From: a virus
Lineage: Duplodnaviria > Caudoviricetes
IMG/VR virus record: IMGVR_UViG_3300043427_004567
Coordinates: 1 to 57,783 of that record
Direction: 5' to 3' (one strand)
DNA: 57,783 nt
The notes under the pieces are model-generated. The model had not been told where the DNA came from. It saw only the letters and a program-made list of their open reading frames with translations, and searched no databases. The translations under genes were made by a program, and so were the position numbers. Position 1 is the stretch's first letter, and each line of letters opens with the position of its first letter. Below, piece after piece: positions 8,259 through 39,965 of this stretch.

Positions 8259-8672
8259 TTATTCGGTTGGTGCCCTATTACCATCAAGACTACCAGTTGC
8301 AACAATTGCTCGGCCTATCATGGCGGAAGAAAGTGTAACTGTTGCTGTTGTTTTACTTGTAAGCTCAATCTCGCTAGGAATTACCATTTTACTATCTTGA
8401 TCGTAGATCTGAATGCTAACAATGTCCGAATTAAGATTATGGGTAATGGTCCATGAAGAGGATGATTCAGCTTGAATATGGATATGTGTTTCTACATCTC
8501 GTGTTAAAGGTACCCAGATTGGATAATTTTGAACATTGACACAGATGTAAACAGTATTACCTTTGAAAATAAGAGAACCAACAACTGGATTGACTGGAAA
8601 TGATGAAATAACTTCCAGTGCTGGATTCTGGAGCTGATTCTTTTGCAGGTTTGCGTTTCCATAAAATTTCAT
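8259..8672 (-). CDS. Virion protein paralogous to 7612..8214, with one 'WxIxHxL' domain
   Basis: MKFYGNANLQKNQLQNPALEVI...SWTITHNLNS...VIPSEIEL. Confidence 0.85.
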   Translation of the reverse strand: MKFYGNANLQKNQLQNPALEVISSFPVNPVVGSLIFKGNTVYICVNVQNYPIWVPLTRDVETHIHIQAESSSSWTITHNLNSDIVSIQIYDQDSKMVIPSEIELTSKTTATVTLSSAMIGRAIVATGSLDGNRAPTE

Positions 8673-8833: not shown

Positions 8834-11533
8834 TTAGGCTGTAGCGATACCCATTACAACAATCTTACATGCAATAGCGGAGTTGAACACAACTGTGAGC
8901 TGTGTTGAGCTGTTGAATGTGATTGATTGTGGGATCACGACTTCGTCGCCAGCATCCACAACTGTTACGTTGCAATACTTCTGGCCAAGGCCATGGGTAA
9001 CAACGTGTGTTGTAGCTGAAGCGCCATCATAGAGATGGAACATCTTGGTTGTACCGAAGGTGTTGTCACCCTTAACTGCGAGGACTTCACCAACTGTAGC
9101 TGTTGAAGCTGTACCAACATCACCGAGGTCACCAAGCTTAACTTGACCCATGAGTGTTGAAGGAGCAACAACTGTCCAGGTGCTACCATCTTTCTGGAGG
9201 AGTGACTTATCAGCACCAGCATCAGCACCGTCAACGTTGGTAAGATCGTCGAGGGAAGCTGCGAGGCTGACAGCGCCAGAAGAAACAGAGAAGAAGTCGC
9301 TGCTGAAGCTTGCGACACCCTTAACTGTTGTTGAAGCATCAGCAACAGAAACTGTAGCTGTTGAGCCGGCTACTGCTGTGGAGATAGCGCCAGAACCCTT
9401 AACATCGAATGAACCACCAAGTGATGTGGCGGCTGAGCCGGTATCACCACCAAATGTCATTGAAGAGTTAGCAAGTTGAGCGTTATCGATACCAGCAGCT
9501 TTCACTGTAACCATACCATCAACAGCAACGGCGAAGTCATCGCTTGAGAACTTAGCGACACCGAGAGCTGCTGTTGTAGCTGTTGCTACTGTGATTACGG
9601 CTGTTGAACCTGTGACAGCAACGTCAACACCTTGAGCGGCAACACCGTCAAATGTGATTGTGCCGCCGAGTGACACTGAACCTGCTGTGCCTTGATCGCC
9701 AGCTAAGCTAACAGCGCTGTTAACAAGCTTAGCATTCTCAATTGAGCCGGCCAACATGGCGTTGGTGACACCGAGAGGAGCGATAGCAAGTTGTGCAGCT
9801 GATGATGTTGAAGCAGCTGAACCGTCAGTTGTCAGTAAGAGACCGCCAGCGGAGTAGAGGTCAAGACCGACTTCGTCAGTTGGGAGCTCTCTAACACCAG
9901 CACCAAGGTTGATGTCAAGAACGTTAGCGTTTTTAGACATACCAACGCCAGCGGTGATCTGACCAGCACCTGTGAACTGAACCCAGCTACCTGTACCTGG
10001 ATAGACATAACCAGTTTCTGTAGCACGATCAAACACGGCCCAACCGTCGACTGGAGCAACACCAGCATCCCATGTGTTAGCAGCTGTAGCAGTGTAGATC
10101 TTATAATCGGTTGTGTTCAAGAAACGGTCGCCTGTTGTAGCTGTTCCTGGCAGTGCGGCACCAACGCTATCAACTGGCTCTTTCCAGGAAAGACCTGAAG
10201 CAACTGAGTCAACATATGACTTGTTTGCAGCATCACCAGCACTTGTTGGAGCGGCCAAGCCTGTCACTTTCTGTGTACCACCGAATGAAAGATCACCGGT
10301 CATGGTATCGCCAGAAACGTTGACATATGTAGCATCAACGAGAGCTGTGATATCGCCTGTTGTAACGGCTGTTGAAGTTGTTACACGGCCATAGGCGTCA
10401 ACAGCAACTTTGCTGAATGCAGCTGAACCAGAGAATGGAACAACAGCGAGGTCAACAAGAATGTCACCAGCGTCTGTACCGGAACCGTTTGTAACAACAA
10501 CGCGATCGGCTGTACCAGCAACATCTTTACCGACCATGGTGCCATCAGCCTTACGGATCATGATGCCATCGTCAGATGTGTTGGCTAAGCTAACAAGTGT
10601 TGCGTCAAGTGACAGGGTGATGTTAGCGCTAACGCCTGTGCCTGAGCTAACAGCAATACCGTCAGAACCGACAACTTCGCGTGTTACAGCTGAACCGTCG
10701 CCTGTACGGACGATAATACCTGTTGTTGACAGACCTTCAAGAGCTGCGAGGTCATTTGCGAGGGCGATTGTTGGGTTACCAGCAACACCGTCAGCATTGG
10801 TGATTGACATGCCAGTTGGGACAACGATTTCACGTGAAGCAAATGTGTCAGCGCCTGTTTGAACGAGAATACCTGTTGATGTTTTATCAGCAAGGGCATC
10901 AAGACCAGCATCATACTTCTGCACGCCTGAATCTGAACCGATTGTGACATCTGTCCAGGTTGAACCGACTAACTTCATTAATGAACCGTCGGCGGCGCCT
11001 GTGAGATCAACATCACCGAGTTGGTCGAGTGAAACTTGACCAGCTAAACCAGCAACAGTAACATCTTCCCACTTACCTGATGTGCTGCTGTACTGGAGTA
11101 AGCCTTTGTCGGCAAGACCAGCAACATCAACGTCATCAAGCTCTGAGAGTTGGTTGTTTGAGTTTGAGTAGATAGCTAACTTGTTGATAGCATCGGTAAA
11201 GCTTGTTGGTGCGCCACCGAGGTCGCTGAATGTGCTGGTGAAACCACCTGCAACGAACGTACCTGTTGATGAAATGCCGGCGCCGAGTGATGTTTCGACA
11301 GCGTCGATTTCAGTCTGAACACCAGTAAGGATTGAAGCATTTGCAACTTTGATCCATGCTGAATCTGTTGAATAATAGAAGCCAGCACCTTCACCACCAG
11401 CACCTGTTTGGTAGATGAAGCGACCAGCTGCGCCTACGGCGAGACCATCAACTGTTGATGTTGTCTCAAGGAACGCGTTCTGAACGCGGCCTGTACCGTC
11501 GGCATTAAAAAGTAAATGACCATTAATTTTCAT
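8834..11533 (-). CDS. Large Gly/Ala/Thr/Ser-rich fibre or decoration protein with internal repeats
   Basis: ORF track gives 8834..11545; ATG 11533 has a GGAG SD; LxDLxDV-type repeats, ATTxxxGVAxFSSDxF repeats, an AANKSYVD motif and a C-terminal 'THVVTHGL' domain; codon usage resembles the major capsid gene. Confidence 0.85.
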   Translation of the reverse strand: MKINGHLLFNADGTGRVQNAFLETTSTVDGLAVGAAGRFIYQTGAGGEGAGFYYSTDSAWIKVANASILTGVQTEIDAVETSLGAGISSTGTFVAGGFTSTFSDLGGAPTSFTDAINKLAIYSNSNNQLSELDDVDVAGLADKGLLQYSSTSGKWEDVTVAGLAGQVSLDQLGDVDLTGAADGSLMKLVGSTWTDVTIGSDSGVQKYDAGLDALADKTSTGILVQTGADTFASREIVVPTGMSITNADGVAGNPTIALANDLAALEGLSTTGIIVRTGDGSAVTREVVGSDGIAVSSGTGVSANITLSLDATLVSLANTSDDGIMIRKADGTMVGKDVAGTADRVVVTNGSGTDAGDILVDLAVVPFSGSAAFSKVAVDAYGRVTTSTAVTTGDITALVDATYVNVSGDTMTGDLSFGGTQKVTGLAAPTSAGDAANKSYVDSVASGLSWKEPVDSVGAALPGTATTGDRFLNTTDYKIYTATAANTWDAGVAPVDGWAVFDRATETGYVYPGTGSWVQFTGAGQITAGVGMSKNANVLDINLGAGVRELPTDEVGLDLYSAGGLLLTTDGSAASTSSAAQLAIAPLGVTNAMLAGSIENAKLVNSAVSLAGDQGTAGSVSLGGTITFDGVAAQGVDVAVTGSTAVITVATATTAALGVAKFSSDDFAVAVDGMVTVKAAGIDNAQLANSSMTFGGDTGSAATSLGGSFDVKGSGAISTAVAGSTATVSVADASTTVKGVASFSSDFFSVSSGAVSLAASLDDLTNVDGADAGADKSLLQKDGSTWTVVAPSTLMGQVKLGDLGDVGTASTATVGEVLAVKGDNTFGTTKMFHLYDGASATTHVVTHGLGQKYCNVTVVDAGDEVVIPQSITFNSSTQLTVVFNSAIACKIVVMGIATA

Positions 11534-11732
11534 ACTTTTCTCCAATGGTTAATTAAAGATTTAATACAGTAAAATGCATTTTATGTATTATGGTATTATG
11601 CTGACACGATGATGCCGTGTCTTTATATCGTTAGATAACATCTAAAACATGTTGTTATCTAAAAACAAAAGATGAAAGAATTTTAGTCTCATCTAAAGAT
11701 TAAAGATTAAAAGTCATTTCGTCTTGCGTGTA

Positions 11733-11992: not shown

Positions 11993-12053
11993 TTCAGTAC
12001 CTCAGGACCTTTAAATTAAATTTCTTTGGTTTAAGATTCTTCTATTATTTACT

Positions 12054-12092
12054 TTTTTTCAATCTTTTTTCAATCTTTTTTCAATCTTTTTC
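12054..12092. repeat. Intergenic tandem repeat (TTTTTTCAATC) x about 3.5
   Basis: 11-bp units at 12054, 12065 and 12076 plus a partial fourth. Confidence 0.85.
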
Positions 12093-12129
12093 TACTTATA
12101 ATCAACTAAAAGTGTGTAACACACATGTA

Positions 12130-12729
12130 TTACCCGGTTGTTTCTACGAAAAACTGTAGACGATTCTGCAAGTTCATACCCAATTTCTTGATAATTGCTG
12201 TTGAGCTGCTTGCAGTACCAACAAATCTTGGCGTATTATAATTTTCACGCTGTTGGCGATAATATACTTTGCCAGTTGGATCTGTATAAGCAAAAATAAT
12301 ATCACTGCCGGCTTTGTTAAAATCACGCAAATCATCAACTGCTATTCTGCATGAGGTGGTACCAGTCACAGATAATAACTGATACGCTGCTGGACCGCTG
12401 TTGTAGAACCAAATATTTGATGCTTGGGCTGTTTGAAAAGCCACAATCGCCGAGCCATTTTGGTCAAAGGCGCCAGAACATGTAATAAGATTTGCGATCG
12501 TGCCAGTTGTAGGATAAGTAAAAGCCACAGTTGATGTATTGGTTTTGCGCATTTTAACTTTACCACCATCAATGAATGTTGTCCAATATTGATATTCACG
12601 TCCCTGCGATAGATCGCTGATATTGATCGGTCCAGAGCACACATGTGAAGTAGCAGAATATGCTTGATTCTCAGGCGGTTTGAAAGTTGATACTCGCGGT
12701 GTTGGAGTGATAGCGTTATTTGGAATCAT
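12130..12729 (-). CDS. Tail tip / receptor-binding module protein
   Basis: ORF track gives 12130..12792; likely start ATG 12729 (MIPNNAI, GGAG SD); motifs GPINISDLSQG, AFDQNG, DDLR...SDIIFAY and YYRQQRENY. Confidence 0.7.
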   Translation of the reverse strand: MIPNNAITPTPRVSTFKPPENQAYSATSHVCSGPINISDLSQGREYQYWTTFIDGGKVKMRKTNTSTVAFTYPTTGTIANLITCSGAFDQNGSAIVAFQTAQASNIWFYNSGPAAYQLLSVTGTTSCRIAVDDLRDFNKAGSDIIFAYTDPTGKVYYRQQRENYNTPRFVGTASSSTAIIKKLGMNLQNRLQFFVETTG

Positions 12730-12730
12730 T

Positions 12731-13651
12731 TTAATCTCTCCCCCACGTTTGGCGGAATGTAATTGAAAAACTATTAGTTGCTGTTTTTGCAATTGGATTA
12801 TTCAAAATAATTTGGTACTTACCTATTCCAGAATTTAGGTAAAATCCTTTGATACCACCGCCGACATTGCCATCTTGTGGTGCGACGACAAAATTTACGT
12901 CACGATAGTATGTGCCTGTTGAATACGTTAAGGGAATTGCTGATTGAACACCACCCCCGTTAAGTGGCACAAAAGTACCAGATGCAACCGTGGCGGTGAT
13001 ATTAGTTAGTGAGGCATCTGTTTGCAAACCATTTAGGAAACAAGCATTTCCGGCAGTATATGAATAACCTGCATTTCCGGCTGCCAATAATCTTGATGTG
13101 TAGGTAAGTGTACTGCCAAGAATTGTAACTGTGCCAGTAGTATCAATCAATGATGGAAAAATCTGCAATCGATAGAAAATAGTAAGTTCGTCTTCAGCGG
13201 CCACTGGGATAGAAGTTGGTGATCCAAACTCATCAGTGATAAGTGCGCGTGACACGAGCTGTCCAGGGTCTGGTACTAAACCAAATCCACCCACACCAAC
13301 TTCAGTAATATTGCCAACAGCTGAACCAACTGGAAATGTCGCGTTGAATGTCCAATTGCCAGAGTAATCACCGCTTGTGCCGTCGTTGAAATAACTTGAT
13401 GATAATTGATTGCCACTATTATCAGCCCGTGCTAAAAAATTTGCAAGTTGTGTGTCATTTGGCGTAACGGGTGTTGTGCCTGTACCAACTTCTATGAAGG
13501 TAAAAACATATCCATAACCAATGGAACCAGACGTGCCGAAGGCGTCAAGACCTTGGTTAAGAATCATATTCTCAAACCAAGGTGTCTCATTTACGTGGCC
13601 ATCTTTGTTCTTGACCGCGATCTTATAATATCCCTTCAGACGTCCTTGCAT
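12731..13651 (-). CDS. Tail fibre/structural protein, paralog A
   Basis: ETPWFENMILNQGLD, EVGTGTTP, GNITEVGVG, LVSRALI and LTIFYRL are shared with 13653..14546. Confidence 0.8.
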   Translation of the reverse strand: MQGRLKGYYKIAVKNKDGHVNETPWFENMILNQGLDAFGTSGSIGYGYVFTFIEVGTGTTPVTPNDTQLANFLARADNSGNQLSSSYFNDGTSGDYSGNWTFNATFPVGSAVGNITEVGVGGFGLVPDPGQLVSRALITDEFGSPTSIPVAAEDELTIFYRLQIFPSLIDTTGTVTILGSTLTYTSRLLAAGNAGYSYTAGNACFLNGLQTDASLTNITATVASGTFVPLNGGGVQSAIPLTYSTGTYYRDVNFVVAPQDGNVGGGIKGFYLNSGIGKYQIILNNPIAKTATNSFSITFRQTWGRD

Positions 13652-13652
13652 A

Positions 13653-14546
13653 TTATCCTCGTGCCCATGAAAGCTTCACATCAAGTGTAAGCGTTTGTAT
13701 ATTTGTTTTTGGAATCGCGGGGGAGAATGTCATTTGGTAACGATTTAAGCCACCGTAAAGTTGCAAACCGCCAATACCGCCAGCAGCATTCCACATAGAT
13801 GGACTAGCAGTAATTGTGCCAACCAACTCACTTGTACCGGCAACATAAGGAGTTACAGAAAATGCATAAGCATAAGAATCTAAGACTGTACCAGACATAT
13901 CATTATCAGTAATAGGCGCAATTGCTGCATCATTTTCGTATGAGATACAAACAAAATTGTATTGGGCACTATAGAATTGACATGCATAATTAGCCCGTAA
14001 CAATGCTGATTCATAATTATATGTGCTTGTGCCAATTGTGACTGTCCCTGTACTTGTTGCAGTATCAGGAGTGATTGTTAAACGATAATATACGGTCAAT
14101 TGATCCATTGATGTTACGGCAATTGAAACCGGATTTGAATATTGGTCAAGAATTAAGGCACGTGAAAATAGAATTGGTCCGTTAGCACCAATACCAACTT
14201 CTGTGATATTTCCAACTACAGCACCTTGTGCAAATGCAGCATAAATGGTATGTTTTCCTGCATAACTTTCACCCGAACCACCATTTTCATAAGAGCCATA
14301 AGATTCATTAGTTTCTGTGGCAATTGGTGTTTCAAGAGATGTTTGAGATACGTTTGGCGCAGATGTGCCTGTGCCAACTTGCATATATCCACCGTAAGCC
14401 CCGTCCAAAAATGTACTACCAACATTTTCACCAATCAAATCCAATCCTTGGTCAAGGATAAGATTAGGAATCCAATCTGTTTCTTTAGTTGTGCCATCAG
14501 GAGACTTTACGACGAATTTGTACTCTCCTTTCAAAAAATTTTTCAT
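13653..14546 (-). CDS. Tail fibre/structural protein, paralog B
   Basis: ETDWIPNLILDQGLD, QVGTGTSAP, GNITEVGIG, LFSRALI and LTVYYRL; C-terminal SWARG compares with TWGRD in paralog A. Confidence 0.8.
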   Translation of the reverse strand: MKNFLKGEYKFVVKSPDGTTKETDWIPNLILDQGLDLIGENVGSTFLDGAYGGYMQVGTGTSAPNVSQTSLETPIATETNESYGSYENGGSGESYAGKHTIYAAFAQGAVVGNITEVGIGANGPILFSRALILDQYSNPVSIAVTSMDQLTVYYRLTITPDTATSTGTVTIGTSTYNYESALLRANYACQFYSAQYNFVCISYENDAAIAPITDNDMSGTVLDSYAYAFSVTPYVAGTSELVGTITASPSMWNAAGGIGGLQLYGGLNRYQMTFSPAIPKTNIQTLTLDVKLSWARG

Positions 14547-14962
14547 GTTAAATCTCCAGAAATAGGAATAGCGTTGTTGAAGTCTAGTAGTTCTATATCG
14601 CCCTGATTATAAGTGATATATGCGATAGTAGTTTCTAATGTGCCCGTTGTTGGTTCTGCATTGTTAAAACTGATAAGCTCTTCAGTACCTGTATACGAAA
14701 TGTATGAAATACTAGTTTCTAATGTGCCAGTTGTGGGTTCTGCATTATTGAATGTCATCAACTCTTCTGTTCCCGTGTATGACAAATATGTAATACTAGT
14801 TTCTAATGTGCCAGTTGTTGGTTCTGCATTGCTAAAACTGATATTGTCAGTCATTGTTGGTAAAAGAAATGATGACACTATCGGCGGATTTTGAACTGTT
14901 AGATTATCAGTTTCTGCCAATGGATATAGTGCTGAAGTAAAATACGAACTAGTTAAAAAAAA
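14543..14962 (-). CDS. 28-aa tandem-repeat structural domain; probably translated as the -1 frameshift extension of 14953..15402
   Basis: The TTG start at 14920 lacks an SD; the frame is open upstream through the T9 run (FFLTSSYFTSALYPLAETDNL); the product contains repeated FNNAEPTTGTLET units. Confidence 0.7.
   Translation of the reverse strand, partial: FFLTSSYFTSALYPLAETDNLTVQNPPIVSSFLLPTMTDNISFSNAEPTTGTLETSITYLSYTGTEELMTFNNAEPTTGTLETSISYISYTGTEELISFNNAEPTTGTLETTIAYITYNQGDIELLDFNNAIPISGDLT
14590..14845 (-). repeat. Three 84-bp in-frame tandem repeats plus a degenerate fourth
   Basis: GTTTCTAATGTGCC(A/C)GTTGT(T/G)GGTTCTGCATT occurs at about 14631, 14715 and 14799. Confidence 0.9.
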
Positions 14963-15402
14963 ACAGCCGGTGGAGGTGGTTCAGGCGTCGTTGAAGGGAA
15001 TAATATAAGAACTGCGCGACCATCTTGAGCACCAGCAAATGAAATTTGCACAGTATCTACGTCAACAACTGTTACTTTATCTGGAAAAATAATTGCGCCT
15101 TCTACGTCATAAACAGTTACTTGTACATTTCGCGTGTTTTGCAGATGTGCTATTGTCCAAACTGCCTCAGCAATTGGTTTTTCATATGCAAAGCCTTTAC
15201 AATTGCTAATTGAAAGAACTGATAGGCCAGTTATAACACCACCAGATTTACCTAGAACTTCGCCTTCTGCAATATCAACGAATTCTAATTGACGCGGACC
15301 AGGGCCGCGGCGGACTGGTATTGTTTCTTGAGATGGATTTGTTGTTACGTACGGCCGGCGAGGAAGTTCTTGCTGGACAAAATTTTCGAATTCGGCAGCC
15401 AT
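14953..15402 (-). CDS. Virion protein with a C-terminal 'WxIxHxL' domain and a Pro-rich linker ending at a slippery T9 run
   Basis: VWTIAHLQNTRNVQVTVYD...IFPDKV...ISFAGAQDGRAVL followed by PSTTPEPPPPAVFF*. Confidence 0.85.
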   Translation of the reverse strand: MAAEFENFVQQELPRRPYVTTNPSQETIPVRRGPGPRQLEFVDIAEGEVLGKSGGVITGLSVLSISNCKGFAYEKPIAEAVWTIAHLQNTRNVQVTVYDVEGAIIFPDKVTVVDVDTVQISFAGAQDGRAVLILFPSTTPEPPPPAVFF

Positions 15403-17747
15403 TATTCGGTCTCCTCTATTTCAACAACTAGCGAGCCAGTTGTATTTGCCCCGGCAAAATCGGCGTCTGACAAGAATAAATTGTTGCCAGTTGAGTTAAA
15501 AACACCAACTGAATTAACTATTGTGAATCCGCCAAACACATTTGCTGTACTTGTTTGATACGCCAGAAGTTGAGTGATGCCTGCGTACCTAACTTGTACC
15601 TTTGAAACATCCAAGACGTTTGCGCCAATAGGTTGATAGCGAGAAAAAGCTGGATATGTAATTTGTCGCAAGGCAAAACCACCAATCGTGAATGATTGGC
15701 CTGAGGTTATCACAGTTCCACTAATGATTGCTTCATTTAACATCATGTCAATTGTGAATGTCTGAACGCCGCGAGGATCAGAATCTCTGATTGTTAGAGT
15801 TGATGTCCAAACTTTGCCGCTACCCGTAAAACTAGACAATATTCCAGCAGAAACTGTAACAAGCGGCGCTGACGCCAGATTCTCAGAAGCAGTTAATGTG
15901 ACAGTGTAAGAAATTCCGCTGGCCGAGCTGCGTAACCGGGTCGGAGAACCCAAAATCGAAATTGCAGCTGTTGGCGCAGTATTCGCAATCTTAACTAGCG
16001 CGTTTGCGATTGATTGTGTGCCGTTGCTTATCTTGTTTGCAGTAATTGTGTAATTATTTCCAGAATCAACATACGTTCCACCAACACAAGTTACATTTTT
16101 TGTTACAGCATATGACGTGGGACCGGCAACGCTTATTTCTGTTCCAGCAGTGTAAGAAACTGTTGCAAAGTCAAAAATTTCAGCAGTTACTGTGGCAGTT
16201 GTGTCAACTTTTAAAGCACCAGTTCCAACTGGATACGCCACGGTGATTGGCCCAAATGTTGGTGCTAACTGATCAAGGAGTACAGCATTTGAAGATTCAA
16301 AAAATGAGCTAGTTGAACCGAATGAAGACGTCGCAAAGGCGCGAACTTTAAGCGAGCCAGTGCCAGAACCAACAACGAATGTTCCAGTGAAAGATCTTAA
16401 CCCAGAACCACCCGATTCAGTTGCGCCAAGAGTCACAGAAGAAGAATTGCCTGCAGCACCATAATTTGTCAAGAGCGTAACACCTGCAGCAGCATTTTGA
16501 ACAGCGCCAGTGACGCTAAGAACGTCTCCAGCCTTAACGGCTGTTTGCAGACCAGGATAACTGCCAATTGAGAGTGAAGAGATTGTTGGCACTGGTGGAG
16601 CAGCAAGAACATCAACATATGTAATTGCTCCAGTTGACGCTGTCAATCTAACATTCGCCGGCGTGACAACTGCTATAGATGCAGTGCCCAGGAAAAAGCG
16701 TTTATCAGTGGGATGTTCAGTTAAAGTTGCCATAACTGGAATTGAGCCAACCTGACCTACTTCAACGGTTGGTGAATAAAATGCTGAACCACCCTCGGCC
16801 ACAAAGCTTACTGTTACCACTGACACATCTGAGGTTGCAGTCGTCAACACTGCATTTGCTGGAATTGTGCCTACTGCATATTGTTTCTGAGAAACTAAAC
16901 CAGTCGCGGTCGGTGAAACGTTTGTCACAAATAAACCGGCGCCTGACTGACTAATCGTGGCAAGCTTTAAATCAAGCGCATCAATAACCGATTGAACATC
17001 TGTTGCCGCAGGCGCAAAAGACGGTGTTGGCATCACACTGACTTCTTTTGCACCGTGCTTGGTACTTGTGCTGGCTAAAAGGTGAGTTGTCAGAGTTGCG
17101 GCAAGAGAAGTTACTTGTGTTTGCAATGAGGAAACATCAACACCATCCACGGTGCCATTTATGTCAATATTTCCATTTACGTAAATATGACCTGTTGCAA
17201 GGTCAGTGATAAGTGTAGTACCATCACTTGTTATTTTGAATACTTCAGGACTTGAATATCCAGGCCTAATTGAGACTAAATCAACAGTACCAGTGGTAAA
17301 ATCTGGTCTAATAATCAAGGCGCTTTGAGATGGTAGCGCTGGACTTATTAACCAATGATCTGCGTCTTGAACAGTTGATGTGATAATTGTAGAAGTTCCA
17401 AAAACTTCAAGATCGCCAGTGATGGTAACTCGGCCAGTTTCTGAATCTATCTTAAAATATAAGTTTGACTCGTCATTGTCGTAAATGACAAAATCTTTGC
17501 CAGTACTTAATTTGATGGATGCGTTATTATTAGAATCTAAACTTAAATCATACGCAGATTGCAGCGTGATAGAAGTGCCAGTGCCGGCCGAGGAAGAACC
17601 ATCGTCAAACAAAAGTCCCTTGCCATTTAAAGTAAACCCTAGGCCAGGTGGCGAAACAATTGAACCGATGTGTATTTGACTATCTTCTGGCGCCGATTGT
17701 AGGCGACCGTCAGAATTTACAAAAATAGGCTTAACGATAATGGGCAT
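15402..17747 (-). CDS. Large Ser/Thr/Gly-rich structural protein with tandem Ig-like domains
   Basis: 781 aa; boundaries such as LDQLAPT and IANTAPTAAISI and the motif SENLASAP resemble bacterial Ig-like repeats. Confidence 0.75.
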   Translation of the reverse strand: MPIIVKPIFVNSDGRLQSAPEDSQIHIGSIVSPPGLGFTLNGKGLLFDDGSSSAGTGTSITLQSAYDLSLDSNNNASIKLSTGKDFVIYDNDESNLYFKIDSETGRVTITGDLEVFGTSTIITSTVQDADHWLISPALPSQSALIIRPDFTTGTVDLVSIRPGYSSPEVFKITSDGTTLITDLATGHIYVNGNIDINGTVDGVDVSSLQTQVTSLAATLTTHLLASTSTKHGAKEVSVMPTPSFAPAATDVQSVIDALDLKLATISQSGAGLFVTNVSPTATGLVSQKQYAVGTIPANAVLTTATSDVSVVTVSFVAEGGSAFYSPTVEVGQVGSIPVMATLTEHPTDKRFFLGTASIAVVTPANVRLTASTGAITYVDVLAAPPVPTISSLSIGSYPGLQTAVKAGDVLSVTGAVQNAAAGVTLLTNYGAAGNSSSVTLGATESGGSGLRSFTGTFVVGSGTGSLKVRAFATSSFGSTSSFFESSNAVLLDQLAPTFGPITVAYPVGTGALKVDTTATVTAEIFDFATVSYTAGTEISVAGPTSYAVTKNVTCVGGTYVDSGNNYTITANKISNGTQSIANALVKIANTAPTAAISILGSPTRLRSSASGISYTVTLTASENLASAPLVTVSAGILSSFTGSGKVWTSTLTIRDSDPRGVQTFTIDMMLNEAIISGTVITSGQSFTIGGFALRQITYPAFSRYQPIGANVLDVSKVQVRYAGITQLLAYQTSTANVFGGFTIVNSVGVFNSTGNNLFLSDADFAGANTTGSLVVEIEETE

Positions 17748-22132: not shown

Positions 22133-25100
22133 TTAGCCTTGAGTGAACGGTGTAATTTGTCTTACTGCGTAAATCATAATTCTTGATGTTTTGAAAATAT
22201 CAGCTAACTCAAAATTATTAACTAGCGCCTCATTTAATGCCGCAAAAAAGATTTCATTAACTTGTCTTGGCGAACCCATCTCCCAAATTTTTGACATCGT
22301 GTCTTGCGTAGATTCAGCAGTTGCAAACCAAGAATTATAATCTTCAAAATCAATAATACCATTTAGAGTATCTGGCAATTTACTGCCATCAGCTGCTGTT
22401 ATAGTTAACTGTGTATTTAATATTGTGTACGTTATTACGTCAATCAATAAATTACGCGGTGCGAGGGTTTGTCCTTCTTTAAGCCCAAAGCGAGTAGAAG
22501 TTCCATGGCGCGCGTCGTATTGTTTTCTCTTGTCACTTGGAATTGGATTTCCAGCAAAATCCTCAGCTGCCAAAGAATGTGTTAATTTTAGCCATAAATC
22601 TTCTGGAATTCTTAAAGGATGTGATTTACGCAATAGGATCCACTCAGAGTGAGTATTTTTCAATTGCAATTGATTCGGGTCATCACGCAGTGTGAAATTC
22701 TTGGTGAATCTAAGTTTGTACATATTATTTTGAGTAACAATACTATTTAGACCGTAAACTGTAAAAGCTTGATAGCGAGCCGGTAAAATGCTGTTTGTTA
22801 AACCCAAATATGCTGGAGACTGGAATGACTGGAAAGTTGCATACAGACTTGGCCCAAATCTTAATTTATTTTTAAGTTGTTGGACAGAAGTTTTTTTGCC
22901 AGTACCCGCCGTGTTTTTGTTTTTAACCCAAAAATAGTATTTAGAAATATTTAAATTGCCCCCAGAATCCCGTGCTTGAACTGAGACATATCTATAATCG
23001 CGTTTATATTGCGTTTGCACAGTAACATCATCTTGTGCTTCAGGATCAAATGCCAATTCTGCCGCGGTTGGCGAATAAGCTCGCTGAATAATCACGATCT
23101 CGTCGCCAATTGCAGTTGAAGGCAACTCAACTGTGTTCTCATTAATTGTAAAGTTTTTTCCAGAAATCAACGCGCCGTTTCGATAAATTGAAACACGTTT
23201 TGGTTCTAGCGTAAAATCAATTTGCGAACTAACAAAAGACGTACCAGTAGAGTATTGTTTGACAATTGTTTTATCTAATAACTGCCATGCTCCCCAAGTT
23301 GAAGTGTATTTCTCAACTGCAGTTAAATCTTTTAACATTAATTTATTATTAGTATAATCCTGTATTAAACTAACTCTATCACCAGTTATTGGTGTAATTT
23401 GTTGGTAGTCGCCGTAATATGGCACCCAACTGTTATTGGGTGATAGTAAATCAGAATCAAGTTGCGCTTGAGTTGGAACAGTCCAGGCTTTCCAACCGTA
23501 TTCAATCATGTCATCATCATTACTTAGATGATTGTCAGGAATTGTAAGTTCAACAGTTGCCGAGATTGTTTCTCGCACAAAGATGTCATGAGTCAATTGC
23601 GCCAACGTGTTAAGAATTGTCGCGGCTGAGATTACTGACGTTAAACTATCAACAGCCGTGGTCAATTCTAATTTTATCCCAAGTGTTGAAAAATCATATG
23701 CTGCAACATAACCGGCTGGCTGTTGAATGTCAGTAATTGTTATAGTTTGACTTTCTCCTATATACGCAGCAGTAGCAGTAAGTTGATCCGCGCCAGTTGC
23801 TGTTAAAATAATTGGACCAATAAATGATATTATTGGGTTAATGCTTGATTTAGTGATTAAAATATTTGCCTCAAAAGTTGAGGTGTTAGAAATAATTCTG
23901 GCGTCAGTAAATCTATTCCAACTTGGGCCATAACTTTCTGAAGAGCCTATTATAGTGCCAAGACTTGTGCCTAACATAACTTCACCGACTGGTTTTTCTT
24001 TAACTTCGTGAGCTACATTTTCATATAACTTAGTCCAAGCTGATAATTTCATTCCAGGCGTAATGTCATAATCTGAAAAACGCCCGGTTGCTAAAATTAT
24101 GTTTGACGGTCCTATCTCTGTTGATTGGAAATAAATGTCAGAACTAAAAGATGACGAAACAAATGGGTAAGAAGCTGGTACCTGGTTATACGACCAAGCA
24201 ATCGGCCTGCCGTACCATGTGCGATTCCGGAAATATGTTTCCGGGCGCGCGGCTTGGCCAGAAGCGCGAATTGCAGGATCTATTTCAGTGTTGCCTTCTT
24301 CTTTTAATGAAAGTGCGTCATATTCATTTGGTGGCACTGTGCTCTCAACCCACTCATAAACATCTACAGTTGACCAAGCAGCAGGCGCACCCCAACGTGC
24401 CAATCTTTCTTCTGTCGATGGAAAAATCAATTCATCATCATATGGCATATATGCCAAATTAGACGTGTCCCACCAAATTTTTCCGACTTGCGCAGGACCC
24501 CAAGATTTTAATGGGCTTAGATTTAAATTTCCCAACTCCAACGTTGAATATGTGTAGCGGGCTGGGTCGAAGGAGTCAGTGAAATCAATTTCAGCTAAAG
24601 CTGTTGGTTCATGAATGCCTGCTGCTGGGTTCCAAATTGGCACGTCGTCAACTAAAACTTTTGCTTGATAATTGAAAAGTTTCATTGGGTTAAATTTGGG
24701 GCTTGAATTAATAAAGCCAAAGAGAGATACCGCCGATGACGTAGTTATTGGTGCCAATAGCTTGACGCTTGAACCAGACAATTTACTAACTTCAATTGAA
24801 AAATTAAATTTGTCACCCGCGGAAAATTCAGTTAAACCAGAACCAATTTTAAATGTTAAACCTGCAACATTAACGGTTTGATTAATAGTAATGCTTGAAC
24901 CAACTAAACTGCCGTTAACTGAAACTGTGAATTCAGTTGCTGAAGTTGCCAAGAATTCCCAGTCTTCTACTGAATTTATCGTTTTGAGCTTAATCGGTTC
25001 AACAATTAAAGATCCAGAACTCGTGTTAGCCAGCGTTTGAGTAATATTTGGTAGTATAAAAAGTTGTGGAGTTTTAAGATTGACTGGAATAATTTGATCA

Positions 25101-28100
25101 ACAGCTCCAGTTATCTGAATTGAATTTGTTTTTTCAGCAACAAAATATTGTGTTTGTCCTAGGTCGTCTAGTGAAAACCAACGATCTTCGTCTAATGGCT
25201 CTAAGAGGGTGAATGACGGTTCTGAAGTAGTTATTGCAGCGGTGATACTCGCGTCTTCACTTTCAAAAACAAATCTAGAATGTTGAAACTCAGCATCGCT
25301 TGGTTGAATTTTCATCTCTGGGAAATTTTTTGTTCTTGAATCGCCATACTCTGCGATCTTGTACGCCCAGAATTCATCTAAATCAAATTCTTTAAACTTT
25401 GATGAGTTGAAAAAGGCAGAAATTGCATTATTTGTGCCTTTTTCTTGAATTAAGCCGCGCCAAAAATTAAATTGTGATCGGTCAGATGTGTTAAGATTTT
25501 TAAAATAATCTTTTTTAGAATATCCAAGAAGCGCAAGAGCATGAGGCGAAGTTAGATTATCATCTGAAATTAAATTTGCGTCATAGTGTGATTTAAATCC
25601 AGCAACATGACTTTCAAGATTTTTAATCAGTTTATTGCCACTCAAAATGTAACCACCAAAAGATGGCCTGAGGGACAGATTAGTCTGTTTTTCACCGTTA
25701 AAATAAATTCTTGAGATCTGTGAACCTAAGTACGAATCATAAATCAATTCGCCGTTCGCATAATTTTCAAAAACTATAACATGTTCATATTCTTCTATTA
25801 ATCCATGCACAGAAAATAGAGGAACGGTTGATGAAATAGAAGTAAGTCGATCTTTTCTGATAATTGTCAAGTCGTCGGTTGAAATAATACTATTTTCCAA
25901 ATCATATGCTGCAGGAATTGCATTTATATCTATAAATGCTTTTGAGTCAAAGGACGAAACAAGACCATTTGGGGTTTCAATCCATATTTTTTCAACAAAC
26001 GGGTTGAGAATGCTAGCCTGGCCAACTTCGATTCCTGACCACACGTCGGAAATAAATTTTTCTATTTCTAGCTGCCAACTAATTGCTCGACCAGTAATTT
26101 CGTCTATTGACGGTTTGTCTTGCTTATTAAAGCGCCAACCTTGAGCTTCAAGGTACAGTGTGTATCCGATTAAGAAGTTAATTACGTTCTGAACTCCAGT
26201 GATAGCAAATGGAACAGGTCTAGTTATTAAGCCAGTTGGATTAGACGGTGTTGACAGAATGTTTACGTAGGATCTCCACTCATTATCAGTTTTTTCTTTG
26301 TTTAGAGCAAAAAATGTTACGTATTCTGCGCTTGTGTCTAAATCATAATACGTTATTTCAGGTCTGCGAGTATTATATGTCTCAATCCTAAATTGCCAAT
26401 CTTCGCCAGCACCAGCAGGAATTATTGCGCCAGCAGTATTATATTTTCGCTGGCCGGTAGTTGTTAATTCTATTCTAAGCGCTTCAGCCCAAATACTTTT
26501 AACAAGCGGGTTGATCTTAATTACTGCCTCTGCTGCGGTGCCATATAATTCATTTAGATTTGTAGAAACATTTAAATTATCAGTGCGCAAGAAACCATTT
26601 GCACGGTGCGCAAGTTTTGTTGACCAACCGCGATAAGCCTTAGCATTAAAAGTTGTATAAATGTCAATTGAATTATAACGTAGCAAATTAGTATAATACT
26701 GATTTAACCCTGCAAATTTTTCAACTGAAGCAGGAATAAATTGAACTGTTTTATTTGAACCATCTACAGTGATAATCAGTTGATCGCCTAAACTAAAACC
26801 TCGACCTTGATCAGAAATTTTTAGGTCAATAATTGACAAAAGTGAAGGCACTCCAATTAACGCGCCAGAGTACAGCGTGTTGGCAAACAAATTGCCAATT
26901 TTTATATCATTAACTGTTAATTGTAAGCAAGCGCCAGGCGCAACTGTTGGAAAAGAAGTTAATCCACTCAGCTGTGTTGTAACTTGTAATTTTATAGTTG
27001 ATGGTGAAGTTGAATTAAAAGTTCCAACTACTAATTTTGAAACGTCTCTGTTAATCGCGGCCGGTTTTTCGCCGTGATACAAAAATTTATTTGCGGCAGG
27101 ACGTGTACCGGTAGATCTTATTAATTCAATATCTGTTAAGTCATTATTAAGGTGCTGAGTGCAAAAACCCCAACAACGGTTAAGATAAACAATAGGCTCA
27201 ACTTTGAAACCTGCGCGGTTAAAACCGTATGCGTACTCGACAGATTTACGCCAAACAAGTTCAGCAGGTCCATTATCACCAAAAATATATCCTGTGTTTT
27301 TATCAGCTGGTTCAACATTTGTTATTGCAAATGAAGAAGCAAAAGAACCCGGCGCAACATATGGTGGCAACAATTCATCAGTTCGTGGGTTTACGCTAAG
27401 CGCTTGACTTAATCCTGGGCCAGGCGGCAAAATACTGGCGATCCAATTCCACATCTCAGACGACCACAGACGGCTTTGAACAAATGTTGCAGCGTCAGTG
27501 CCAACTGTGCCAGTTGTTGTTAGCACCCAAACGGTGTTTAAAAATTCATATCCTTCAGAAATAGCAAGGCCCGCACCAGTTGACATAGTTGACATTCCGA
27601 GCATATCTGTAGCTCTTATCCAAATGCCGTTACTGCCGCTACCCAGAAAGCTAACTGTGTAAAGACCATTTTCCTCTTGAAGAGTTTGTCCAATAACTAG
27701 AACACGATCGCCTGCAGCTAAACTTACACCATCTACTGTATTTGGTGCAGCGTTAAGATTAAGATTAGTAACTTGAACAACTTTTGCAGGAGCTAGTTCG
27801 CTTGTTGGAGAAATGCCAGTGTAAAAATCATCGCCTGTGCCCATACCGGAATCCCAAGCAACTGGTTTTGTTTCAAAACCAACAATCTTCCATGGTTCAA
27901 GATTTGGACGACATGTTGGCAGAGAAAAGCCAATTGACCCGACTGGTACTGGTGATAAAGACAGACCGTCAAAATGTTCTTTTAATAAATCGTGCCATCT
28001 GGCGATTCCAACAGTTGTTCCGGTTGTCAAAGATAATGTTATAGACGTTGCCGTCACTGCGCTTTTTGCAAGTTGTTTATAATTCCATGTGAAAGCGTCA

Positions 28101-31100
28101 GTTGAGTCATAATCTGTACCAGCCGGATCATATTCATACTTCGCAGCAAAACGCGCAAATTCCAATTCAAGATTTTTTTGATATGTTTGACTCGTCGAAA
28201 TTGTATTATTAGGCGGCCAGACTTGTTGAGTGTTAGCAGGAACATTTTCGTATAGTTTAGTTTCAACCGCGAAAACTAGACTGTTCACCGCAGCGGTTAA
28301 ATCAACTTGCTGCCAGGCAGCTGTTAATACTTCTGGCTGCCAATTTGAACCGTCCCATCGCTTAAGAGTTTGTGTTTCTGAGCTGTACCAAAGATCATTT
28401 ACAAAGGCAATTGCTGGTGAAGTAGTATCGCTTGCTACGCCAAAAATGTATAAATCGCCTGTTGAGCTGTCAAACCATAGTTGATTTTTATACAACAGCG
28501 GGTCAGCGTCTGAAGTTCTTGTTGGAGCTGTTGGACGTGAAATACCCGCCACCAGTTGATTATTCCAACGACTAACTTGTGCGCGGGATAACACGCGATT
28601 TACTTCTACATCTATGTTAATCACTGGAGTAGCATGTCCATCGTGATGTTTCAGAACTACAATTCCTAATTCTGAATCAAATACGTACTTAGGTTCAACC
28701 GCAGGAGCTAATCCAAGATAGGGTAAAGTTGCTGGCCAATTTTTTATCGCAGAAGTTGAATCATAAAAAACTTGAGAAAGATCTGTTCTATCTTTGATAG
28801 AATCTTCATACGCTTTTAATAATTTCTGCGTAGTTAGATCAGTTGGATCTAACAGCGAGATATCAGTTGATGCTGGAGTTGGGTTTCCCTGTTCTGTTAT
28901 AAATTTAAGAATATCTTGATCGAAAAAAGATGTTACGCTGTTTAGCGCTTGTTGGTAAGAAGATTCAGCAAAATCTAAAATTGACAGCGGGCTTAGGTCT
29001 CTTTGCATAAGCATTGAAATGAAAAGACCATAACTATTTGAGAAATCTTTAATCACGCCGCCTAGGCCATAATTCTTACTGATATTTCTCCAATTATTAA
29101 ATCCAGTTGGCGAGCCAGAAAAATCATGTTGAGAAGAAATAATATTTCTAAAGTGAAAAACTAATTCTTGAACACCAATTTCACGTCTGTTCTCATGAAG
29201 AAGATTTGCTCTTATTGCCTTTGGAGTTGCCCAGGCGCCATCTACAGAATTTGGATCACCAAAGTAAGGTACAACACTACCAGTTGAATCTAACTCTACG
29301 TATTTTGGCACTTCAACATTAGTTAGTATAAAACTTATCGTGTCACCTGGTAAAAATGGGATACTGCCAGGCGCAACTGTCATACCAAAAGCCGGTTCTG
29401 AATATGGCACGCCAACTATTAAATTTGGCAAACTGCCGTCTTCGCTACCAACTACTGAGAATGTTGAAGAAGTTAAAGCAGTTAAAATAAATTTCTGCGA
29501 GTTAGTTAATTCGCCTGGCGTTAGATCGGCAATTGTTGCATCACTGTCAGATGTTATAATTGGTGTTGAAACAGTTGCACTGGTTGGGCCTGGTTGCCAA
29601 ATGCTCTTTAACTGATTTGATGCTGACGAAATTTTATAAAAAAGTTGTGCACCGTCTGAAGTTAAAAGACCTTGTGAAAAAATTAGATTTGAATTTTCAT
29701 CTCGAGCAGGTCTCTTGTTTAGAAGTTCATCATAATCGGCCTGTTGATTTTCAGCGTAATAGAAAATTGGACTAATTATATTTGTAAATTCACCGTTTAG
29801 ATCGTAAAGATTGAACAATGGATTTTGATTTATCTTAGTTTTTTGTTGAATGGAATTGAATGATTGTGAACCATAAGGTTGTGGGATTCCATCTAGTGAA
29901 TCACTTGAAAGTTCAATACCATATTGGAATTCTACAATCGGCCGTCTCGCAAATTGTACCTTGCTAAGATCTAAGTTGGGTACTGAGCCAAGATCGTCTG
30001 TGTGTACCCAATAATTATGTTGAGACCAATCATTTAATTTGGATACAGTTGAATCAGCAGAAAATGTTAAGGCTGCTAAACTTTGCGGAGTTTCAGGAGT
30101 TGAAAAGGCTGTTTGCGCATTGACTGTCCCAGTTAAAACATATACATAAGCGCCTGAAATCAAATCAGCATCAGAATTAAAGTCAAGTGCTCTAGTAAAT
30201 GCGCCATTTTGAACAACATAGATACCATTCCCAACTCCGCCTAGTTGATTTTTAACTAGAATACGCTGATTAATCTTTAGAGTAATCCCATCAATTGTTT
30301 GAAATGGTGCTAATCCCTTAATGCCAGTTATAGTTCCATTGCCTACGCCGGTGGAGGCAGCGGTGTATGAATTAACTATTTGTGTAATCGTTATGGTGAA
30401 GACATCGCCTGAGACGAATGGAGTAGTGCCTTCAGAAATTAAGAATGAAATCACACCAGAAGCAACAAATGGCGTTCCAACTATTGCAGTGCCAATCACT
30501 GTTCCAGTTACTGAGCTTGAAACGTCAAATGTTGTTGGTGAAGTTGCAGTTATAGTAAATGTTTCATTCACGGGGCGGCCAGAACCAGTTAAAACTATTG
30601 GCGCCGTAGTTGCAATATCTACCGAGAGTTTTGTTCTATCATTATTTTCTGGTTTAGAAATAGTTACGTATTCTGGAATATTGCTTGTATTCCAAGTCAT
30701 CTCTGGATGATTAATACCATCTGCAATCCAGTAGTAATTTGTGTAATTGCAAAACTTATCTAAATCAATTGGTGGTGCAAAATTTAGTGTTTGAGATTTC
30801 CCCCATTCTTTCAATTTTGAAATATCTATTCCTAAGCTCGTGGCTCGGTTTAAGATATCTTGAAATGTAAAAATGTGACGGTCAGGCCCAACTGAAAAAG
30901 ATATGCTTGGTGTTAAAGTATTAACAGTGCGTTCAACAGTTGATTGATTTATTAAAGGTCTGGCTTCCTCAGAAGGAGATATTTTGTTTCCCACATAGCC
31001 GTAAAATGGCAAACTTTCTTGTTTAGTGAAAAACCTGTTGAATAAATTTTCAAACAACGAGGTGTTAAGATCGTTGCGAAGATAAACAGGTAAAAGTGCT

Positions 31101-38843: not shown

Positions 38844-39965
38844 TTACCAATCGCCCGAGGCGCCACCACCACCAAAATTACCACCTGAGCCTTTAAATTT
38901 TGAATATGCGGCAGAACCTTCTTTCTCAACAACAGAAATTGCCTTGGTCGTTACCTCTGATTGAATTGCAGTAGCTGCCTCGTATCTGGCATCTGAAAGC
39001 GGCCTAACAGTTGAGGCCGTCGGGATAGTTTGATCGCCGAGAGGCAGCTGACCAGCAGTTGCAGATAAGCTTGATTTGATATTTACTGGTGGAGATACCG
39101 GTGCTGGTGGCACATAAGCTGAAGATAATCTACCATTTCGATAAGCGCTAAGATCAAATCCTGAATACTGTGCAGGCGAAAAAGATTCTTTGAGCGTTAA
39201 CGAAATTTCGCATAAAACGGGGAATGGTGTACCAGATTCAATTCCTGAATTTAAATCTGCTTCGCACTCAATGTAATCAACATCATTTGGATATGTGAAA
39301 TTATAATTGAGCAATACTACTGGGTGTTGATCTATATTTGAGGGACCATAGGCAGAAAACATTAGTACTGGTGGAGGAGCACCAAACATCAAATCAAATG
39401 ATTCAGCAGTGCCTTGACCGTAATACGGCATCACCCATGATCTAATCATGTTAAGCTTTTTAAGGTTTTCAGTTGCTTCGGCTGCAGTTCTAGAAACTAG
39501 TTTTATGCCATTTAAATTCCATGATCTAGAATTAGTAGTTTTGTACTTCAACATTTCACCTGGATGATGAGAAACAGAAATGCTGTCATACACCGCGTCA
39601 CGACTATCTGAGATAACTGGATTTGCTAAAAACTTAATAGTCTGACGATCTTGTTGACTGTAAGTTTTTAATGTAATAATTGTTTTATTTTGATTATCCT
39701 CATTTGGCAGATTTGATCTTAACAAGCTCGCAAGCTGTGAAGAAGATGGAAATGAGCCTGCAAATTGATTTATTAGTGTTGATGTTTTTTTGCCAAACGA
39801 AGATGTAGTTAAACTAGAGGATATTTTTGAACTTAACTTGTTAAAAACAGCCTGCTGACCGCTCGCAACTAATTTATTGGCTACCTCAACTGCTTTTTTT
39901 TCTGCAGACGGTAGAGCCTTAGACAGAGACTGTGGCACAGAAGTTATATCACCTAAATTACTCAT
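38844..39965 (-). CDS. Tail tube initiator (gp48/gp54-like)
   Basis: GAPPPVLMFSAYG...PVVLLNYNFTYPNDVDYI...PVLCEISLTL; C-terminal GGNFGGGGASGDW tail. Confidence 0.7.
   Translation of the reverse strand: MSNLGDITSVPQSLSKALPSAEKKAVEVANKLVASGQQAVFNKLSSKISSSLTTSSFGKKTSTLINQFAGSFPSSSQLASLLRSNLPNEDNQNKTIITLKTYSQQDRQTIKFLANPVISDSRDAVYDSISVSHHPGEMLKYKTTNSRSWNLNGIKLVSRTAAEATENLKKLNMIRSWVMPYYGQGTAESFDLMFGAPPPVLMFSAYGPSNIDQHPVVLLNYNFTYPNDVDYIECEADLNSGIESGTPFPVLCEISLTLKESFSPAQYSGFDLSAYRNGRLSSAYVPPAPVSPPVNIKSSLSATAGQLPLGDQTIPTASTVRPLSDARYEAATAIQSEVTTKAISVVEKEGSAAYSKFKGSGGNFGGGGASGDW

Follow-up and report, generated by a model that had tools for sequence, protein, structure and literature searches.

A nine-T junction between a resident virion gene and an inserted putative tail-fibre connector in a PaBG-like jumbo phage fragment: a candidate slippage site

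At one locus of a phage genome fragment, two reading frames on the minus strand meet at an uninterrupted run of nine T residues (T9), which raises the question of whether they are two genes or the two parts of one protein and, if the latter, how the junction is read. The fragment, hereafter the window, is the whole of IMG/VR record IMGVR_UViG_3300043427_004567 (57,783 bases, rated 16% complete). Upstream of the run lies an open reading frame (ORF) for a 149-amino-acid (aa) protein, and downstream of it an ORF for a domain with 28-aa repeats, followed by two tail-fibre genes. An earlier note on this DNA had proposed that the phage makes a short and a long form, or toggles between them. We find support for the two ORFs as parts of a single predicted polypeptide joined at the T run; that slippage, transcriptional and/or ribosomal, yields forms of 149 and 286 aa is a reading to which we give slightly better than an even chance. 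The junction comprises the following features.

14953..15402, minus strand: resident gene (short form, 149 aa); relatives conserve residues 1-136, and the linker at residues 137-149 (STTPEPPPPAVFF) came with the cassette
14956..14994, minus strand: Pro-rich linker, thirteen 0-frame codons (STTPEPPPPAVFF), in place of the ancestral stop codon
14955..14963, minus strand: T9 run, proposed slip site; frame 0 reads GTT TTT TTT TAA, frame -1 reads TTT TTT TTA
14981..14983, minus strand: TGA closing the -1 frame upstream, confining a possible shift to 14980-14955
14543..14959, minus strand: -1-frame repeat domain, 138 codons from the TTT at 14959, running from the YFTSALYP motif to ...ISGDLT-TGA
14918..14920, minus strand: TTG, sole in-frame start of the repeat ORF and the L of YPL in the conserved motif; no Shine-Dalgarno (SD) sequence
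14618..14843, minus strand: 84-bp (28-aa) tandem repeats, 2.7 copies, 78% matches (Tandem Repeats Finder, period 84)

The 149-aa ORF ends ...CCT GAA CCA CCT CCA CCG GCT GTT TTT TTT TAA, that is, PPPPAVFF-TAA. Within T9 the heptamer T TTT TTT is phased as an X XXY YYZ site, and the -1 frame behind it is open for 138 codons; after its TGA this frame reads ...TGT TTT TTT TTA ACT AGT TCG TAT TTT... (FLTSSYFTSALYPLAETDNL) and stays open to the TGA at 14545-14543. The upstream TGA (14983-14981) lies nine codons upstream of the TTA, and direct reading of the -1 frame from there to the TTG at 14920 found no ATG, GTG or TTG. The conserved opening of the domain falls between this TGA and the TTG, without a start codon, and is therefore reachable only through a shift at T9. 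One extra T (T10) would give V F F L T S S..., the same frame as a -1 shift, and the long form after the shift would have 149 + 137 = 286 aa. The predicted products are thus of 16 and 31 kDa, and the -1 part is free of Lys and Arg. What the earlier note had stated about the letters (T9, its phasing, the -1 continuation, the SD-less TTG, the upstream TGA and the repeat) was correct on re-reading, base for base. T9 as the tail of a transcription terminator was ruled out, no stem lying ahead of the run.

The case for a single polypeptide is carried by the relatives of the repeat domain. A full HMMER scan of 1.84 billion representatives returned 47 proteins at E <= 1e-3 (best 7.9e-12), and BLASTP of the repeat domain against one of the family members, P0001, gave 2e-19. 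All family members open the domain with YFTSxLYP and close the protein with ...SGTL(T/V); T8, Y12 and P13 are nearly invariant in 44 sequences, and T8, L11, Y12 and P13 are invariant in eight. The motif is intact in the window in the -1 frame, its translation being conditional on a shift at T9. The alignments of the HMMER matches begin at query residue 3-7, ahead of the TTG (residue 14), and the similarity to P0001 and P0002 extends upstream of the TTG. All 58 homologous ORFs found beside fibre genes (see below) have an in-frame start upstream of the motif, and the window has none. Ten of 46 database proteins, and 7 of 52 distinct ORFs from fibre loci, have a Pro-rich stretch directly ahead of the motif, in frame (e.g., P0009, ...GPPPPPPPPPVDRYFTSALYPF, and P0020). 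The window has the same architecture of N-terminal domain, linker and motif, but with the linker in frame 0 and the motif in frame -1. The earlier note's view that the two ORFs belong to one protein is thus borne out by a motif that begins upstream of the only start, a frame-0 linker like the in-frame linkers of homologues, and a domain that is a C-terminal module elsewhere.

The N-terminal part of family members is variable. Many are proteins of ~150 aa with a short N-terminal peptide; the N-terminal domains of others match tail-fibre PHROGs, the T7 tail-fibre N-terminus (PF03906, 1 of 44), PKD and fn3, each in one or two members. The N-terminal peptides of P0003-P0048 include the classes M(I/F)GAITGVLSSR... 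and ...FPDSKKKAPNVFF..., and by eye the window junction AVFF-LTSS (14950-14975), a short stretch, is like both (GVLSSR; APNVFF). If this likeness is true, family homology would cross the T run into frame 0.

None of the Pfam and PHROG models matches the repeat domain. There was no match to it, to P0026 or to P0015 in a tblastn search of the phage database, and a search for relatives of the domain, P0003 and P0009 in viral contigs found none; a degenerate DNA pattern for the motif matched four stretches, three of them true members. The AlphaFold2 model of the domain is all-beta, with a predicted local distance difference test score (pLDDT) of 63.3. Foldseek returned no matches to it in the PDB at E <= 1e-3, and the ESM Atlas gave no usable match. 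A wide VIA-align search reached at best Z 5.8, below the tool's noise mark of Z 8, with beta-helix or solenoid proteins in every row, which is only a lead that the domain may be beta-solenoid-like. The family is undescribed: a common C-terminal domain without a name or a Pfam or PHROG model.

In SP6/K1-5 and at the fibre joints of T4, receptor-binding proteins are attached to the tail through small adaptors or connectors. The repeat-domain family may have a comparable role. We fetched 80 IMG/VR loci by fibre alignment and ran the domain profile against their stop-to-stop ORFs. A domain-bearing ORF adjoins the fibre gene in 58 of the 80, ending -3 to +126 nucleotides (nt) before the fibre match; of the 22 loci without an adjoining domain, one has no upstream DNA, and in two the domain lies at a distance of 355 nt. 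In 51 of the 52 distinct ORFs the domain is C-terminal, and the window ORF likewise ends ...ISGDLT-TGA, overlapping the fibre ATG. Ahead of the domain there are fewer than 60 aa in 17 of these ORFs, 60-99 aa in four, and at least 100 aa or a contig cut in 29. The complete order connector, fibre, third gene is present in L011 and L013. These observations support the repeat domain as a putative connector or docking module for fibres, and make it a candidate docking interface of a large fibre family (phrog_4176 type). Like the SP6/K1-5-type adaptors, the family would combine a variable N-terminal anchor with a module encoded immediately upstream of a fibre or spike gene; neither sequence nor confident fold similarity to solved adaptors was found, and fibre binding is putative. 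A complex prediction for fibre and repeat domain gave ipSAE values of 0.01/0.02, neither for nor against binding.

L020 (1348-1948 and 2943-3489) and L041 (2-1115 and 3004-4090) each hold two connector-domain ORFs, which suggests tandem fibre modules in some phages. Two loci proposed from an envelope-based estimate were rejected as cases of a connector without a start: at L058 an ATG was found upstream of the motif, and at L054 an in-frame GTG at codon 47 lies upstream of the aligned domain start at residue 151; neither was counted. L054 is the less certain of the two, the envelope-based estimate placing the domain start one codon before the GTG.

The junction has a recent history that can be read from close relatives. 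One IMG/VR locus (L004) and three metagenome loci (L006, L007, L008) have their flanks in common with the window at 76-86% DNA identity and have no cassette. In these loci the small gene stops at codon 136 (...MFP-TAA), and 104 nt and then a 77-aa gene come next; the 149-aa protein of the window is 81% identical to the 136-aa gene product of L004. Homology to all four loci breaks at 14996, in the Pro136 codon, and restarts at 11994. By this comparison, the insertion swapped the resident stop codon for an in-frame Pro-rich linker. Besides the linker codons (STTPEPPPPAVFF), T9 and the repeat domain, the cassette holds two fibre paralogues and a third gene:

11995..14994, minus strand: whole 3.0-kb cassette, with blastn breakpoints at 14996 and 11994; close relatives have 104 nt instead
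13653..14546, minus strand: fibre gene 1, 297 aa; phrog_4176, 2.9e-53; ATGA overlap with the repeat ORF
12731..13651, minus strand: fibre gene 2, 306 aa, paralogous to fibre 1 (38% identical); phrog_4176, 3.3e-55
12130..12729, minus strand: third module gene, ~199 aa from ATG 12729, with the SD sequence GGGGGAGAG ahead; phrog_4950, 5.2e-30

Fibre gene 1 has 543 homologues at E <= 1e-10. It also has its own GGAG 7 nt ahead of the ATG, and translational coupling to the repeat ORF is therefore possible but not required. The suggestion that the long form adds an adaptor coupled to the duplicated tail-tip genes is supported in one respect, 58 of 80 loci encoding a connector-type module just ahead of the fibre gene, and is left optional in the other. 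The third gene type (phrog_4950) also occurs in L011 and L013. In the window its most likely start is the ATG at 12729 behind GGGGGAGAG rather than the listed TTG at 12792; in the contig of one other strain (X5), the short A run that separates the fibre stop from this ATG is longer by one base (12727-12733). At the far cassette end, just upstream of the promoter-like site of the 77-aa gene, an 11-nt tandem repeat (GATTGAAAAAA) is present in ~3.5 copies (12054-12091, minus strand); words of this repeat occur at 2-4 times local depth in X3 and X5, and strains show 1-nt indels there.

We then consider the run itself. In 4 of 4 runs the Logan contigs span T9 without indel, the word depths being 51, 64, 15 and 10. 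The contigs of X1 and X3 match the window letter for letter and may have given rise to it; the other two come from other studies and differ from it by 6 letters with 0 gaps (X5, record 14) and by 12 letters with 0 gaps (X6, record 18). The X6 contig is without exactly one 84-nt (28-aa) repeat unit (14708-14791), and repeat number therefore differs between strains. T9 is not an assembly slip. Long A/T runs are strongly avoided elsewhere in the window: windows of 8 T (or 8 A) number three, at two loci, vs. 27.1 +/- 7.1 in dinucleotide shuffles, and in 40 long ORFs there are two A/T runs of at least 8 (10.0 +/- 2.5 in synonymous-codon shuffles, 0 of 200 as low) and 11 of at least 7 (27.4 +/- 3.7, 0 of 200 as low). 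The only A/T run of at least 9 is this T9, and it is placed within the 26 nt over which the frames can be joined by a -1 shift. The one other A/T run of 8 in the window (39894-39901) reads as A8 on the sense strand, close to the 5' end of a 373-aa ORF (38844..39965).

A mechanism that would account for these features begins with a three-gene tail-fibre module (connector, fibre and third protein, the fibre as two paralogues) that entered a PaBG-like jumbo phage by recombination, its insertion point being precisely the stop codon of a resident virion gene of 136 aa. In the process the connector would have lost its own start and N-terminal peptide, and it now stands behind the Pro-rich linker, one base out of frame. 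Standard decoding of T9 would yield the 149-aa short form. If RNA polymerase inserts one more U while copying the 9-T tract, the 286-aa form would result, ...PPPPAVFF-LTSSYFTSALYP...; the same product could arise by a -1 slip of tRNA-Phe on U UUU UUU, either tandem or P-site, or with UAA in the A site. In the long form the resident domain would bear the connector domain and the connector would hold the new fibres, with a fixed minority of long form per virion as the outcome. Features associated with transcriptional slippage are seen here, namely an uninterrupted T9 in the sense strand, a frame restored by +1 nt, and avoidance of such runs elsewhere in the window, and we infer slippage at a useful rate.

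Several observations weigh against a programmed shift. A shift is present in 0 of the 58 connector loci; all 58 homologues have their own start, and the shift is therefore unique to the window's lineage. Relatives of the 149-aa protein in L004, L006, L007, L008 and the phages PaBG and NCTB are free-standing and have no T run, and no fused protein resembling it was found among 552 candidates, which is weak evidence, or among 48 in a second check. The 136 nt downstream form no stable RNA structure (minimum free energy -19.6 kcal/mol, z = -1.22, 28 of 200 shuffles as good), and no stem lies within ~10 nt of the run in a search that did not include pseudoknots. There is no SD-like stimulator upstream on direct reading, CCACCUCCACC being without GGAGG. 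Free-standing connectors with only 3-7 residues ahead of the motif (L053 and L062) indicate that an anchor is therefore not always needed. A/T runs of at least 9 are not rare in shuffles (1 observed vs. 2.0 expected, 71 of 200 as low), and GTT TTT TTT TTA for VFFL has a probability of 0.098 from codon usage alone, so that the T run need not be selected. The sampled strains differ by under ~1%, and the persistence of T9 accordingly spans a short time only. Logan contigs drop minority variants, so that a minority T10 or RNA heterogeneity is invisible in them, and the runs on record as RNA that hold the T9 stretch number 0.

Set beside the earlier note, the idea of two forms or a toggle keeps its first element, the junction of two ORFs at the T run, and loses ground on programming or toggling, given the 0 of 58 homologues, the lack of structure and T9 in 4 of 4 contigs. 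That note had also held that homologues with two independent genes and no slippery run would refute its idea. The homologues are formally arranged in just this way; this does not decide the matter, because the junction is a lineage-specific product of cassette insertion, in which the connector lost its own start.

Of the alternatives to slippage, the one that survives best is a fixed frameshift: the chimera would have been born in frame, as T10, and split by a one-base deletion, and the connector would be a young pseudogene, or the cassette would work without it. In-frame fusions of linker and motif are the family norm and the shift is unique to this lineage, as such a history would predict; no stimulator was found, and the sampled strains are too little diverged to show purifying selection. 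The history fits less well with a 138-codon frame that is intact in a region of 60% A+T, with three intact downstream genes, and with strains that are distinct by single-nucleotide polymorphisms (SNPs), come from different studies and have T9 in common. The sole length change seen is a whole 84-nt unit, and a 9-T tract would be expected to give some slippage product anyway (PMC1088944, in the part consulted). We regard a fixed frameshift as unlikely.

T9 might instead act as a contingency locus in DNA, changing to T10 and back during replication, so that OFF genomes would make the short form and ON genomes the in-frame 286-aa fusion. Accessory fibres would then be switched per lineage and not per ribosome, which is compatible with slippage as well. 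A 9-nt homopolymer at a coding junction, where +1 nt restores the frame, is of the expected kind, and a preprint describes reversible frameshifting at simple repeats for T2, T4 and other phages (10.1101/2025.10.21.683753, as far as consulted). Strain-level indels at other short A runs or repeats of the cassette (12065, 12076, 12728) indicate that slippage of this sort occurs in the lineage. For the tract itself, the contigs of 4 of 4 runs from four studies all carry T9, and no T8 or T10 contig was found, though contigs drop minority variants. In the loci of T2/T4 and other phages, as would be the case here, homopolymer length in a coding region decides protein output; the window is unlike them in showing no tract-length variation in contigs and in an OFF state that still gives a complete, conserved short protein. 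Switching of this kind appears distinctly improbable to us.

That the two ORFs are separate proteins, with the repeat ORF starting at the TTG at 14920 (125 aa), perhaps by re-initiation, and the 149-aa linker tail a meaningless remnant, is very improbable. TTG is an allowed start codon, the TAA is only 33 nt upstream, and free-standing connectors are common (17 of 52 ORFs with fewer than 60 residues before the domain), but this start would delete T8, Y12 and P13 of the nearly invariant YFTSxLYP, has no SD, and lies downstream of where all 58 homologues start and of where the similarity to P0001 and P0002 begins. The called 125-aa TTG ORF is almost certainly wrong. Least credible of all is a sequencing or assembly error hiding a true T10 and a single 286-aa ORF, which homopolymers in a metagenome contig might invite: the earlier note had named a T10 consensus as the sign of such an error, and this was not borne out by the Logan contigs of the four runs, two of them from other studies with their own SNPs.

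Slippage at T9, the reading we prefer, would be of a kind that is already known; the analysis also brings out a connector domain family that is undescribed and maps a module insertion. Selection against slippage typically sets in at a run length of 9A/9T, and in mxiE one nucleotide inserted at a U run is needed to fuse two ORFs (both in the consulted part of PMC1088944); E. coli genes have fewer UUUUUUU than expected in every frame (PMC4066793, likewise in part). Shigella flexneri mxiE (mxiEa and mxiEb; compare Thermus thermophilus dnaX and insertion sequence (IS) elements) resembles the window in a long T run within an ORF overlap, where one non-templated nucleotide gives the longer product, and in that such runs are otherwise avoided in coding DNA, which for the window comes from its own statistics. 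Unlike the window, mxiE encodes a regulator and not a virion protein, and its slippage has been measured, whereas slippage in the window is predicted from the sequence.

Among phage proteins, the T3/T7 capsid forms 10A/10B, Lactobacillus phage A2, Listeria phages A118, A500 and PSA, and the Ig-like domains are cases of accessory C-terminal domains that arise by programmed frameshifting and give, as the window would, a short and a C-terminally extended structural form. Mobile C-terminal modules of phage structural proteins, as reported in the part of PMC5009743 consulted, end up in frame or out of frame and then depend on frameshifting for their expression; Ig-like-type modules are mobile in this way, and the repeat domain of the window matches that pattern. 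Those modules decorate capsid and tail-tube proteins at sites conserved among relatives, whereas the 28-aa-repeat domain stands before fibre genes and its site is not conserved. Lambda gpG/gpGT would be comparable: close to the 3' end of this small tail gene, a -1 shift gives a low fixed ratio of a fusion that bridges two partners (PMC5009743, same part). It differs in lying between the tube and tape-measure genes and in not being a virion component, and there is no sequence similarity; the neighbours in the window are a 781-aa tail protein upstream and the fibre genes downstream, which is not a G/GT-type position.

The window comes from freshwater and, judged from its proteins, is a fragment of a PaBG-like jumbo myovirus. 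The 149-aa protein is 42% identical to gp092 of Pseudomonas phage PaBG (6e-19), also matches phage NCTB, and has a phrog_21918 match at 1.1e-12. Upstream of it lies one further tail gene:

15402..17747, minus strand: 781-aa virion/tail gene; phrog_15433, E 4.3e-84

The stop of this gene and the ATG of the 149-aa gene share 1 nt (TAATG), and PaBG and NCTB have the same pair of large tail gene and small gene, likewise with a 1-nt overlap. The label of PHROG 15433 is "tail sheath"; PaBG gp093 (L001, 4376-6001) is called "tail sheath" in RefSeq and "tail assembly protein" in GenBank. The PaBG virion proteome includes gp94, a 54.9-kDa "tail assembly protein," and the sheath proteins named in the PaBG paper are other genes, gp213 and gp76 (PMC7412058, in the part consulted). 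Given these conflicting PaBG labels, the sheath label of the 781-aa protein is doubtful. Sequence searches against solved structures gave no match for the 781-aa protein and, for the 149-aa protein, only spurious designed-repeat rows with 0 matched stretches; in the ESM Atlas the 149-aa protein falls among viral hypothetical proteins, and megablast of 6.8 kb against the phage database found no match. phrog_21918 is common to the C-terminal half of the 149-aa protein (14953-15402) and the last ~65 residues of a 903-aa fibre (8834-11545), and a 137-aa ORF (8259..8672) is similar by eye to phrog_21918-type stretches (W.I.H...V.V.D...I.P pattern). Upstream of the tail genes, the same strand also has a 3006-aa ORF (22133-31153).

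For annotation pipelines, the 125-aa TTG ORF is a concrete case of an almost certain miscall. If slippage at T9 is real, the locus would be a dated, clean example of the wiring of an acquired receptor-binding module into a virion, with a cassette-free relative known and both breakpoints mapped to the base, and the module would be attached at the end of a resident protein and dosed by a homopolymer instead of a start codon. A further step, that T9 is a selected dosing device which turns a fixed fraction of a resident baseplate-associated protein into the anchor for a second, horizontally acquired fibre set, is tentative and on balance doubtful. If it holds, each virion would carry a sub-stoichiometric accessory receptor-binding module, and host range would be gained without disturbing the resident fibre apparatus. 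An out-of-frame fusion to a resident protein could then serve to add a new fibre module, with a homopolymer as the tuning element, and phrog_4176-type fibres would have in the 28-aa-repeat domain a docking module that is widespread and undescribed.

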